A DNA stretch of 64,000 nucleotides, taken from an uncultured Bacteroidales bacterium (GTDB lineage: Bacteria; Bacteroidota; Bacteroidia; Bacteroidales; Bacteroidaceae). Positions 61,918-61,995 of the stretch are shown piece by piece (position 1 is the stretch's first letter; every line of letters starts with the position of its first letter). The notes beneath the pieces were generated by a model, which ran no database searches, was not told the origin of the DNA, and saw only the letters and a program-made list of their open reading frames with translations. The DNA lies in NCBI GenBank assembly GCA_902801485.1, contig CADCIP010000010.1:25465-89464 (forward strand). Direction: 5' to 3'. The translations under genes and the position numbers were made by a program.

Positions 61918-61957
61918 CGAGGCACCGGCCTCGATTTTTCTTTTTTCTTTTTTCTTT
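61918..61957 (+). terminator. Hairpin CGAGGCaccgGCCTCG followed by a T-rich tract. It looks like an intrinsic terminator, but it is oriented for the plus strand, antisense to the operon
   Basis: 6-bp GC stem with a 4-nt loop, then atttttcttttttcttttttctttt. Confidence 0.4.
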
Positions 61958-61995
61958 TGGTAGCCCGTTGAGGAGTCGAACCTCAACGAGCTTGT
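61958..61995 (-). other. tRNA 3'-end fragment (T-arm + acceptor 3' strand + CCA). Not a complete tRNA
   Basis: The minus strand reads ..cgTTGAGGTTCGACTCCTCAACGGGCTACCA. It has a GGTTCGACTCC T-loop/stem signature followed by 7 nt + A + CCA. No matching 5' acceptor strand (AGCCCGT) lies upstream. Confidence 0.6.

Follow-up and report, generated by a model that had tools for sequence, protein, structure and literature searches.

The 64-kb window analysed here, i.e., the whole stretch of DNA under study, harbors a short minihelix module behind the gene for a pilin-like lipoprotein; among bacterial RNA elements, this module seems not to have been described so far. As judged from its sequence and that of its relatives, this element is probably (at a rough probability of 0.55) a cis-acting mimic of a tRNA precursor in the 3' UTR of the pilin-like mRNA, which would recruit RNase P together with 3'-end and CCA enzymes. 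The element is characterized by a closed structure, covariation of its helix, location on the gene strand, a fixed spacing to the stop codon, restriction to one gene family, and a tail resembling native pre-tRNA trailers.

On the minus strand, the 645-aa lipoprotein gene (62007..63944, from the ORF list), a member of a type V pilin-like family with the module in its 3' UTR, ends with TAA (62009-62007), followed by a run of eight C residues (62006-61999), which an earlier note on this DNA had counted as seven, and by TATACAAGCTCGTTGAGGTTCGACTCCTCAACGGGCTACCA (61998-61958). The minus-strand sequence quoted in that note is real, and the T-arm signature GGTTCGACTCC, the 7-nt 3' acceptor strand, A73, and CCA were all found. 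Its interpretation as the 3'-end fragment of a tRNA without a 5' half holds only insofar as D and anticodon arms are missing. Next to the T-stem lies a 5' acceptor strand, AGCTCGT (61992-61986), which forms six Watson-Crick pairs and one G-U pair with ACGGGCT (61968-61962), so that the element is a closed acceptor/T-arm minihelix (61962..61992, minus strand) with its own 5' strand, as supported by fold, covariation, and a covariance-model match. Because of this adjacency, the minihelix amounts to 31 nt in total, in which the acceptor 5' strand is followed by the T-stem (61985-61981), the T-loop UUCGACU (61980-61974), the returning T-stem (61973-61969), and the acceptor 3' strand. In the minimum free energy fold, this results in a continuous 12-bp helix (7+5) with the 7-nt T-loop on top (z = -3.6 for a 116-nt stretch). 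The helix begins 14 nt past the stop codon and is preceded by a G-free leader of this length (62006-61993, minus strand) consisting of the C8 run and TATACA. Behind the helix, a single-stranded A73-C74-C75-A76 tail (61958..61961, minus strand) leads into an A-rich linker (61934..61957, minus strand) and a hairpin CGAGGC-CGGU-GCCUCG (61918..61933, minus strand), whose CGG(U) loop is invariant in the family; the A-rich tract (61957-61934) and the subsequent GC hairpin (61933-61918) described earlier are thus confirmed. A canonical tRNA gene was rejected, as ARAGORN called no tRNA in the 64-kb window and neither tRNA nor tmRNA at the site itself, and no cloverleaf can be formed with D and anticodon arms lacking. 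The copy in the window matches the covariance model of the family with 61.4 bits (E about 4e-14).

Applied to 80 related metagenome loci, the covariance model yielded 75 matches, every one of them on the gene strand. A scan of related loci for the structure alone led to 78 matches, again all on the gene strand, compared with 0.4 in shuffled sequences. A seed-only check, which is free of selection for pairing, revealed paired helices in 68 of 71 occurrences on the gene strand and two occurrences on the other strand, both unpaired. Conservation was counted in a canonical set of 48 non-redundant copies, all of which have a gapless helix of exactly 12 bp and an invariant G53-UUCGACU-C61 segment. 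Compensatory changes are found at 11 of the 12 base pairs with 96.7% of pairs formed, and the covariation score is 0.79, compared with 0.27 for shuffled and 0.06-0.16 for slid controls. The upstream paralog, located just outside the window (in locus L001), is followed by another copy that has the same architecture and loop with entirely different stems. Canonical copies score 43-67 bits with the covariance model, whereas real tRNA and tmRNA genes reach 28 bits or less.

Most copies start 8-15 nt past the stop codon of a family gene, and the gap to the next start codon varies, being 55 nt for the copy in the window versus about 240 nt for the L001 copy. A regulator of the downstream gene was discarded as a candidate, as the distance to the next start is variable and that to the upstream stop is fixed. 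The element is found behind 57 of 127 family ORFs (about 45%) but only behind 1 of 75 non-family ORFs; its facultative presence within the family was noted as a point against a pre-tRNA mimic. A scan of a genome collection for GGTTCGACTCC-N10-ACAAA gave at least 120 matches; among the matches listed, there were 82 genuine tRNA genes as well as tmRNA 3' ends, and one true element (L177), which again lies behind a family gene. Neither the window nor six module-rich loci matched any Rfam 15 family at its gathering score, and E values of up to 10 admitted just two spurious matches near the site. A prior description of such an element was not found in the literature searched.

The proteins encoded on both sides of the module look like major subunits of a type V pilus-like surface-fibre system. 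The 645-aa protein has more than 7000 homologues in Prevotella and Bacteroidaceae metagenomes from rumen and gut. Searches of its family against Pfam and NCBIfam revealed no domain and no fimbrillin match, and a sequence search of the PDB, profile included, was likewise without a match. Among 24 homologues, the lipobox residue Cys19 and Thr48 are invariant and Arg49 is nearly so; a lipobox Cys with a conserved downstream Arg corresponds to the pattern of type V (FimA/Mfa1-type) pilins. By analogy with type V pili, Arg49 may be the site of maturation by a protease. With an AlphaFold model of the pilin-like protein (pLDDT 59.7), the top Foldseek match is a fimbrial protein of Bacteroides vulgatus (4qb7, probability 0.98, TM 0.2-0.34), and Mfa4 is found lower down; the fimbrial match is weak because the model is just moderately confident. 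The next paralog (642 aa, 59935..61863, minus strand) starts 55 nt past the hairpin, and the covariance model detects no module behind it. Genes found within about 6 kb on the right-hand side are those for a third paralog, for a DUF3575 outer-membrane protein and a DUF5119 protein, and for a ParE-type toxin pair. Bacteroidetes promoters have a -7 box with the consensus TAnnTTTG. An exact match is absent between the three paralogs and present after the third one, which is weakly consistent with co-transcription of the paralogs.

The tail of the element is well conserved, with C74 in 48/48, A76 in 41/48, and A73 in 37/48 copies, and with A (32) or C (11) predominating at position 75. The 20 nt past the helix have an A content of 59% across copies compared with a background of 29%. 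This A73-C74-A-rich tail resembles genuine Bacteroidota pre-tRNA trailers: in tRNA genes of this phylum, C74 is encoded in 18/19, A75 in 13/19, and a full CCA only in 1/19. The 10 nt upstream of the helix are depleted of G, with A at -1 in 33/48 and T at -2 in 28/48 copies. Few G residues are likewise found near positions -1 to -3 in the leaders of real Bacteroidota tRNAs; as T prevails at -1 in tRNAs and A in the element, the likeness of the leaders is not counted as support. At the first pair, the copies have A-U, U-A, or no pairing at all, in place of the G1-C72 found in most tRNAs. Both the A at -1, where real leaders mostly have T, and a first pair other than G1-C72 were recorded as observations against a mimic.

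The sampled tmRNA genes of Bacteroidota share the T-arm GGTTCGACTCC and an A|CAAA trailer with the element, and the tRNA-like domain of tmRNA similarly combines an acceptor stem and a T-arm without an anticodon arm. In contrast to tmRNA, the element has neither the G3:U70 alanine identity pair nor a tag reading frame, and its acceptor is unrelated and variable. An alanine-accepting or tmRNA-like function was rejected for lack of G3:U70, as pair 3:70 is C-G in 42, U-A in 4, and U-G in 2 of the 48 copies, with C-G in the window. With G3:U70 absent and 1:72 variable, aminoacylation identity is not conserved.

According to the proposed mechanism, tRNA-processing enzymes would take this part of the pilin mRNA for a tRNA precursor. 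Its parts would be the short G-poor leader, the 12-bp minihelix whose T-loop is canonical, A73 followed by the invariant C74, the A-rich trailer, and usually the CGG(U) hairpin. RNase P, RNase Z, and CCA-adding enzymes are known to recognize the tRNA elbow and to measure the distance to the acceptor end (PMC4810234). Similarly, RNase P, the tRNA 3'-end nuclease or nucleases, and the CCA-adding enzyme may recognize the T-loop corner of the element and measure its 12-bp helix. Cleavage by RNase P would take place where the helix begins on its 5' side, 8-15 nt past the stop codon. At N73/C74, the trailer would be removed by a cut or by trimming, and the end would subsequently be completed to CCA. 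Two ends are conceivable, i.e., an mRNA stopping just before the helix or an mRNA capped by the CCA-terminated helix. It seems odd that an RNase P cut would leave an unstructured tail of 8-15 nt on a presumably abundant upstream mRNA. The defined RNA ends right behind the pilin ORF would represent a bacterial version of tRNA punctuation, by which amount and lifetime of the mRNA for the major subunit could be set independently of the downstream genes. The earlier proposal of a tRNA-like 3' processing or stabilizing element is favored by the comparative evidence; the action of tRNA enzymes, the end produced, and an effect on stoichiometry are what we infer beyond that.

Among the closest known systems are the t-elements of plant mitochondria, in which a GGTTCRANYCC T-arm and an acceptor-like stem lie beside protein-coding transcripts (Forner et al. 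2007, PMC1920247). The ends of t-elements coincide with 5' or 3' termini of mRNAs and are thought to arise by RNase P and RNase Z cutting, and released t-elements carry non-encoded C or CCA additions (PMC1920247). The GGTTCRANYCC T-arm, a 12-bp acceptor/T stack, and a discriminator with C74 are conserved in the element as well. Differences are that t-elements are organellar, non-canonical cloverleaves, occurring a few per genome and without a tie to a single gene family, whereas the element is a bare bacterial minihelix of 31 nt with a fixed stop distance, one lipoprotein family, a CGG-loop companion, and predicted processing. In the case of MALAT1 mascRNA, MEN-beta, and mitochondrial tRNA punctuation, a tRNA mimic recruits RNase P, followed by RNase Z and the CCA-adding enzyme. 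As proposed for the element, tRNA mimicry within a longer transcript creates the 3' end of the upstream RNA; these structures are, however, eukaryotic or organellar and cloverleaf-like rather than bacterial minihelices. The new 3' end of MALAT1 is protected by a triple helix, an equivalent of which was not seen upstream of the minihelix.

In bacteria, the non-tRNA substrates of RNase P include the 4.5S RNA precursor, tmRNA, C4 RNA of phages P1 and P7, and some operon mRNAs, and cleavage requires no more than a hairpin or minihelix that ends in an NCCA-like tail on its 3' side. The smallest substrate classically used with RNase P and CCA-adding enzymes is the 12-bp acceptor/T helix, and the element resembles such synthetic minihelices in its 12-bp helix and NCCA-like tail. 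To our knowledge, a conserved natural minihelix family has not been described in 3' UTRs of bacterial mRNAs. Tracts at the 3' end of viral RNAs, e.g., in TYMV, are pseudoknotted mimics of the full L-shape, which end in (C)CA, are aminoacylated, and serve as substrates for tRNA enzymes of the host. Such tRNA-like structures (TLSs) resemble the element in that a coding RNA mimics tRNA at its 3' end; the element differs from them in being chromosomal and bacterial with unconserved identity elements.

Alternatively, the module could be a plain 3' stabilizer, in which a GC-rich hairpin of 12 bp, alone or together with the CGG hairpin, blocks 3'-to-5' exonucleases and the likeness to tRNA reflects origin only. 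Its position immediately past the stop codon of a structural gene that is presumably abundant would suit this role, and GC hairpins without U-tracts also follow other genes in these genomes. In addition, a few relaxed copies keep the helix and have lost the T-loop or C74, with loops of 3-4 nt in L013 and 9 nt in L086; because of these copies, a plain hairpin may retain some function. A stabilizer would, however, need neither an invariant 7-nt T-loop nor exactly 12 bp without indels in 48 diverged copies nor an invariant C74, and the loop remained unchanged while 11 of the 12 stem pairs diverged. A mere stabilizer is thus considered unlikely.

Similarly unlikely is an elbow mimic serving a specific partner, such as the ribosome or a dedicated RNA-binding protein, or a precursor of a trans-acting small RNA. 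A more specific partner is hinted at by loop positions 59-60, which are strictly invariant and not needed by general tRNA enzymes. The CGG(U) loop is invariant, too, while the stems covary. The CGG(U)-loop hairpin is found downstream of 29/44 copies (controls: 0, 2, and 0.3), and in 27/27 copies the five inner pairs of its stem are intact, compensatory variants included; these pairs were counted by script, as the MAFFT alignment was out of structural register due to a 1-nt gap at its end. In tRNAs, G18/G19 of the D-loop dock onto T-loop residues 55/56 (PMC4810234). The CGG(U) loop could stand in for G18-G19 of the D-loop and thereby form a tRNA-like corner. This is opposed by the lack of a CGG hairpin within 110 nt in 15/44 copies and by the size of the loop, as 3-4 nt are small for two intercalating G residues; covariation cannot probe a contact between the two loops because both are invariant. 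Further points in favor of a specific partner or a small-RNA precursor are the identity of the T-loop with that of the sampled Bacteroidota tmRNA genes and tandem arrays combining canonical and split-T-loop modules, which recall tRNA gene clusters. In a slightly more plausible, though still doubtful version, minihelix and CGG(U) hairpin constitute a minimal tRNA elbow on the mRNA, or tandem modules are released as stable tRNA-like small RNAs. If true, the former would provide a bacterial mRNA with an enzymatically repairable, CCA-terminated 3' end, as the cellular equivalent of what is called the "genomic tag" in viruses, and the latter would constitute a new tRNA-like class with its own function, co-produced with pili in Prevotella-type bacteria.

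The hairpin at 61918-61933 might also be an intrinsic terminator for antisense transcription on the plus strand, where it is terminator-like and reads CGAGGCACCGGCCTCG followed by ATTTTTCTTT. In agreement with the earlier note, a T-tract exists solely on this strand: the terminator scan called the hairpin on the plus strand only, with the tail ATTTTTCTTT and as the sole terminator-like call in the region. As a conserved feature, an antisense-oriented terminator is not supported, since the A-run of 4 or more that it requires directly upstream of the hairpin on the sense strand is present in just 9/29 homologues, many of which have an outer GC stem where this A-run would stand. What is conserved instead is the CGG(U) loop sequence of the sense strand, and the ORF list contains no plus-strand gene converging on the site. 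A dedicated antisense terminator is therefore very unlikely, and the T-tract in the window is a by-product of the A-rich tail. An intrinsic terminator on the sense strand was rejected, as none of the 29 hairpins has a U-tract on its sense side.

REP elements are intergenic palindromic hairpins. The palindromic hairpin behind the gene could accordingly be a REP-like repeat that was spread by a transposase and lies here incidentally, which is highly improbable: the covariance model with filters off finds one minihelix copy in 64 kb, the element is confined to one gene family (57/127 vs 1/75), and copies of the same genome differ in their stems and agree in the loop, the reverse of REP copies.

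Tyrosine integrases of Bacteroidota elements often use tRNA 3' ends as targets. The other alternative of the earlier note, a recombination scar formed by a duplicated tRNA 3' end (attL/attR) of an integrating element, draws on the superficial resemblance to a CCA-bearing tRNA 3' end, as att sites and the element share a T-arm, an acceptor 3' strand, a discriminator, and CCA. An att scar would comprise one strand of a particular tRNA without selection for pairing with adjacent 5' sequence, whereas the complementary 5' strand of the element is present and covaries, and the closed helix always lies on the gene strand and keeps a fixed distance of 8-15 nt to stop codons of a single family in many genomes. 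A partner repeat is absent from the window, where the 25-mer of the site occurs once even with 3 mismatches allowed (0 expected), and the L001 copy has different stems. A parent tRNA was not found in the 64-kb window or in L001-L003. The exact 24-mer of the 3' end is confined to orthologous sites among 206 loci and has 0 matches in the viral collection, and none of 99 matches to a composite T-loop...AGGCCGG pattern in viral contigs is a minihelix. Of the integrase expected beyond the right edge, there is no sign within about 6 kb on that side, and in the left 19 kb of the window, the ten large ORFs that were scanned are housekeeping genes. With integrase, partner repeat, and matching tRNA not found in the regions covered, the att scar is rejected as hardly credible.

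That tRNA mimicry can signal mRNA ends is well established for organelles, long non-coding RNAs of eukaryotes, and RNA viruses, and a conserved cis-element of this type in bacterial mRNAs appears to have no earlier description. The element is short, extremely well backed by covariation, and apparently very common, and as a pre-tRNA mimic it would supply RNase P, RNase Z, and CCA enzymes with a minimal substrate of natural origin and could become a compact part for transcript-end control in Bacteroidota engineering. Its Prevotella-type hosts are dominant members of rumen and gut communities, and their RNA biology is almost unexplored. In these bacteria, the element offers a testable case in which RNase P, RNase Z, and CCA enzymes may shape bacterial mRNA ends and the stoichiometry of operons.

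The 645-aa ORF on the minus strand (62007-63944) ends with a TAA codon (62009-62007), which is directly followed by a run of eight C residues (62006-61999), counted as seven in the earlier note, and by TATACA. The T-arm, 7-nt acceptor strand, discriminator base and CCA described there are all present on the minus strand at 61992-61958 in the sequence AGCTCGT-TGAGG-TTCGACT-CCTCA-ACGGGCT-A-CCA. On the same strand follow an A-rich tract (61957-61934), the hairpin CGAGGC-CGGT-GCCTCG (61933-61918) and a 642-aa ORF starting at 61863. The 5' strand of the acceptor, which had been regarded as missing together with the rest of the 5' half of a tRNA, lies directly 5' of the T-stem, where AGCTCGT pairs with ACGGGCT by six Watson-Crick pairs and one G-U pair. 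Owing to this complementarity, RNAfold yields a continuous 12-bp helix with a 7-nt closing loop, next to a separate 6-bp hairpin with a CGGU loop (-32.6 kcal/mol, z = -3.6). Thus, the feature is a complete acceptor/T-arm minihelix and not the 3' fragment of a tRNA. ARAGORN found no tRNA in the 64-kb window, and the element matched no family in Rfam 15.

A contig encoding an identical protein (L001) reaches past the right window edge, where a third tandem paralog of 631 aa is located upstream of the 645-aa gene (L001 4145-6112). A second copy of the element (L001 6050-6112) begins 9 nt after the stop codon of this paralog and consists of the minihelix CACCAGG-CGGGG-TTCGACT-CCCCG-CTTGGTG-A-CAAAG, an A-rich stretch and the hairpin AGGGC-CGGT-GCCCT. 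Both copies have the architecture of 7 + 5 bp, the T-loop and the hairpin loop in common, whereas every stem sequence differs. Metagenome loci with relatives of 34-75% identity, 80 in all, were scanned for the structure alone (7 + 5 bp with a TTCRANN loop, ≥11 of 12 pairs), which gave 78 matches, all on the gene strand, compared to 0.4 in shuffled sequences. To avoid circularity, the 9-mer GTTCGACTC alone was also used as a seed; it is found on the gene strand of these loci 71 times, 68 of them with ≥10 of the other 11 pairs formed, and twice on the opposite strand, both times unpaired. The 48 non-redundant copies align without gaps, with 96.7% of cells paired and changes on both sides at 11 of the 12 pairs. 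The covariation score is 0.79, compared to 0.27 for shuffled alignments (0/500 as high) and 0.06-0.16 for slid registers. Invariant in all 48 copies are G53, UUCGACU, C61 and a C two positions past the helix, which corresponds to tRNA position 74. With a covariance model built for the element, the window copy scores 61.4 bits (E ~4e-14), and no further copies are found in the 64 kb with filters off. On the family loci, the model gives 75 matches, all on the gene strand and 66 of them at ≥43 bits; genuine tRNA and tmRNA genes score no higher than 28 bits.

A minority of copies behind family genes is relaxed and keeps the 12-bp helix with a mutated (TGCGATT, TGCGACT), enlarged (9 nt, TTGAATGTT) or shrunken (3-4 nt) loop or without C74 (L013 2091-2118; L064, L065, L082 and L086, e.g. 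L086 4016-4048; L029 6101-6131; L051 5699-5729). These copies may be decaying, or they may be a sign that the helix alone retains some function. A related module has a split T-loop, in which a closing helix of 7-9 bp is followed by GGTTC, an inserted stretch of ~30 nt containing two small hairpins (approximate consensus TTG..CAAG CGAGC-AAA-GCTCG AGCGC) and GACTCC. It is found at L054 68-110 and 1994-2036; L084 2739-2780, 2807-2848 and 5296-5339; L031 6956-6994; L010 2131-2171; L012 2805-2844 and 4931-4969; L056 2488-2521; and L074 117-149. Split modules stand in tandem with canonical minihelices, with up to three modules in a row, which recalls a tRNA gene cluster, and have no Rfam entry.

In the tail of the 48 copies, A73 is present in 37, C74 in all, A or C at position 75 in 32 and 11, respectively, and A76 in 41, before an A-rich run begins; the first 20 nt past the helix contain 59% A against a background of 29%. 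Matches listed for a genome scan with GGTTCGACTCC-N10-ACAAA were mostly genuine Bacteroidota tRNA genes and tmRNA 3' ends (L087-L206, e.g. L105 from Chryseobacterium; tmRNA genes at L102 6484-6886 and L159 6784-7182). The T-arm GGTTCGACTCC is common to the Bacteroidota tmRNA genes in this small sample. In Bacteroidota tRNA genes not selected by the pattern, a small sample mainly from one Chryseobacterium locus, C74 is encoded in 18/19, A75 in 13/19 and CCA in 1/19. Bacteroidota tRNA and tmRNA genes thus mostly encode C74 and not CCA, and in this small sample the trailer commonly continues with CAAA. The element thus copies the acceptor/T helix together with the native 3' trailer of the pre-tRNAs of this phylum. 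The 10-nt leader of the element is nearly free of G. Genuine tRNA leaders likewise contain little G at -1 to -3, yet they favor T at -1 while the element favors A, so that the leader is not counted as support. Since pair 3:70 is C-G and not G-U, and pair 1:72 varies, an aminoacylation identity is not conserved. The contig L004 (Logan ERR3201403_793229) has its 3' end at 5059, precisely on the final base of the CCA encoded in ...ACGGGCT-ACCA; about 22 nt beyond, the A-rich tract starts to vary between strains. The run is probably a metagenome, and the position of the end is perhaps a coincidence.

The conserved set comprises the exact 12-bp helix, the invariant T-loop, N73 with C74, and an unstructured A-rich trailer. 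Helix length, T-loop, N73/C74 and trailer are read by RNase P, RNase Z-type 3' processing and the CCA-adding enzyme (PMC4810234), and the same features define the t-elements of plant mitochondria, which mark mRNA ends (PMC1920247). For this reason, the element is proposed to be a bacterial t-element, a pre-tRNA mimic in pilin mRNA. The former suggestion of a tRNA-like processing or stabilizing element agrees with the conserved features. Positions -1 and 1:72 are atypical for such a mimic, the strict conservation of loop positions 59-60 is not explained by it, and a few relaxed copies lack the T-loop. Alternatively, the element could be a plain hairpin that blocks exonucleases, or it could have a dedicated partner, either as an elbow mimic or as the precursor of a small RNA. 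Full-text literature searches gave no description of such an element in bacteria; it would join the tRNA-like cis-elements that define RNA ends, which are of a known kind.

Most copies start 8-15 nt past the stop codon of a family member, and more distant ones have a related module in front. The gap to the next start codon is variable (55 nt for the window copy, about 240 nt for the other copy), and the element therefore belongs to the 3' UTR of the upstream gene. In the family loci, 57 of 127 family ORFs are followed by the element, compared to 1 of 75 non-family ORFs, which is a truncated family member. The element is facultative and occurs both between paralogs and ahead of unrelated genes. 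In this organism, it follows the first two of the three paralogs and is absent behind the third (642 aa) and behind the 376-aa and 435-aa genes. Among the matches listed, one true copy stems from a named genome, a Bacteroidaceae MAG (L177), behind a family member with 37% identity and trailed by a CGGU-loop hairpin with the different stem CGCCC/GGGCG. A recombination (att) scar, the other reading offered at first, would be under no selection for a 5' strand that covaries at a fixed distance behind the stop codons of one gene family, and is rejected on these grounds; neither a partner repeat in the window, nor a parent tRNA in reach, nor a match in viral contigs was found, and the ~6 kb to the right contain no integrase or transposase.

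A downstream hairpin with the loop CGG (18) or CGGU (11) is present in 29 of 44 non-redundant copies, mostly at 16-37 nt, compared to 0 in upstream coding sequence, 2 in the reverse complement and 0.3 in shuffles. In a slightly different non-redundant set of 27 copies, which includes L177, the five inner pairs are always formed, with GC, AT and CG variants at each position, and an outer GC stem extends the hairpin in many copies. On the sense strand, the 29 hairpins are never followed by a U-run, and only 9 are directly preceded by an A-run. A consensus scan does call the window hairpin terminator-like, on the plus strand only, as had been claimed, because the A-rich tail abuts the hairpin in this copy; the opposite-strand terminator is a peculiarity of the window copy and not a conserved feature. 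Since G18 and G19 contact residues 55 and 56 in tRNA (PMC4810234), the invariant GG-containing loop could serve as a D-loop-like docking partner for the T-loop beside it, which is likewise invariant.

The flanking proteins have no match in Pfam, NCBIfam or PDB sequences, and their more than 7000 relatives are all named hypothetical proteins of Prevotella sp. or Bacteroidaceae. The lipobox Cys is invariant and an Arg about 30 residues on is nearly so, the right-hand neighbors encode a barrel protein of the outer membrane (DUF3575) and a DUF5119 protein, and the sole significant Foldseek match of an AlphaFold model of moderate confidence (pLDDT 59.7) is 4qb7, a fimbrial protein of Bacteroides vulgatus, with Mfa4 further down. 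Based on these features, a type V pilin-like nature is plausible. Downstream on the same strand are ORFs of 376, 435, 4447 (43767-57110, minus) and 7536 aa (20142-42752, minus); the two giant ones could encode tip or adhesin proteins of this surface-fiber locus. Within the leftmost 19 kb of the window, the ten large ORFs that were scanned have housekeeping functions (rhamnose catabolism, V-ATPase subunits, polysaccharide synthesis). Numerous short intergenic tandem motifs precede the 4447-aa, 435-aa and 376-aa genes on the minus strand (57110-57260, 58575-58700 and 59836-59935), namely GTTGATAG/GTGATAG, ACTTTAG and CGTTAACG repeats, TTTACGG and AAAAGTG three times each, and a (GA)n run. Behind the 435-aa gene lies a GC hairpin that lacks a U-tract, CCCCCTCC...GGGGGAGGG. 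The first pilin paralog is separated from the DUF5119 gene by a gene for a ParE-type toxin (108 aa) and a partner of 115 aa (L001 3439-4100). The Bacteroidetes -7 box has the consensus TAnnTTTG. Ahead of the first paralog, it has a single exact match, which is located some 105 nt from the start codon, where the toxin gene has its 3' end. Exact matches are absent between the three paralogs and present after the third, which is weakly in favor of a tricistronic pilin transcript punctuated by the modules.

As a pre-tRNA mimic, the element would bring tRNA end-processing to the pilin mRNA and give it defined ends just behind the ORF. Either RNase P would cut the mRNA 8-15 nt past its stop codon, or 3' processing would leave an mRNA capped by a CCA-terminated helix. 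In some loci, a separate C/G-rich hairpin, CCCCTCTCC...GAGAGGGG, followed by GGGGGTGAGGC, lies between stop codon and minihelix (L042 2340-2423, L061 3330-3406). Were RNase P to cut at the helix, the upstream mRNA would retain this hairpin at its 3' end.
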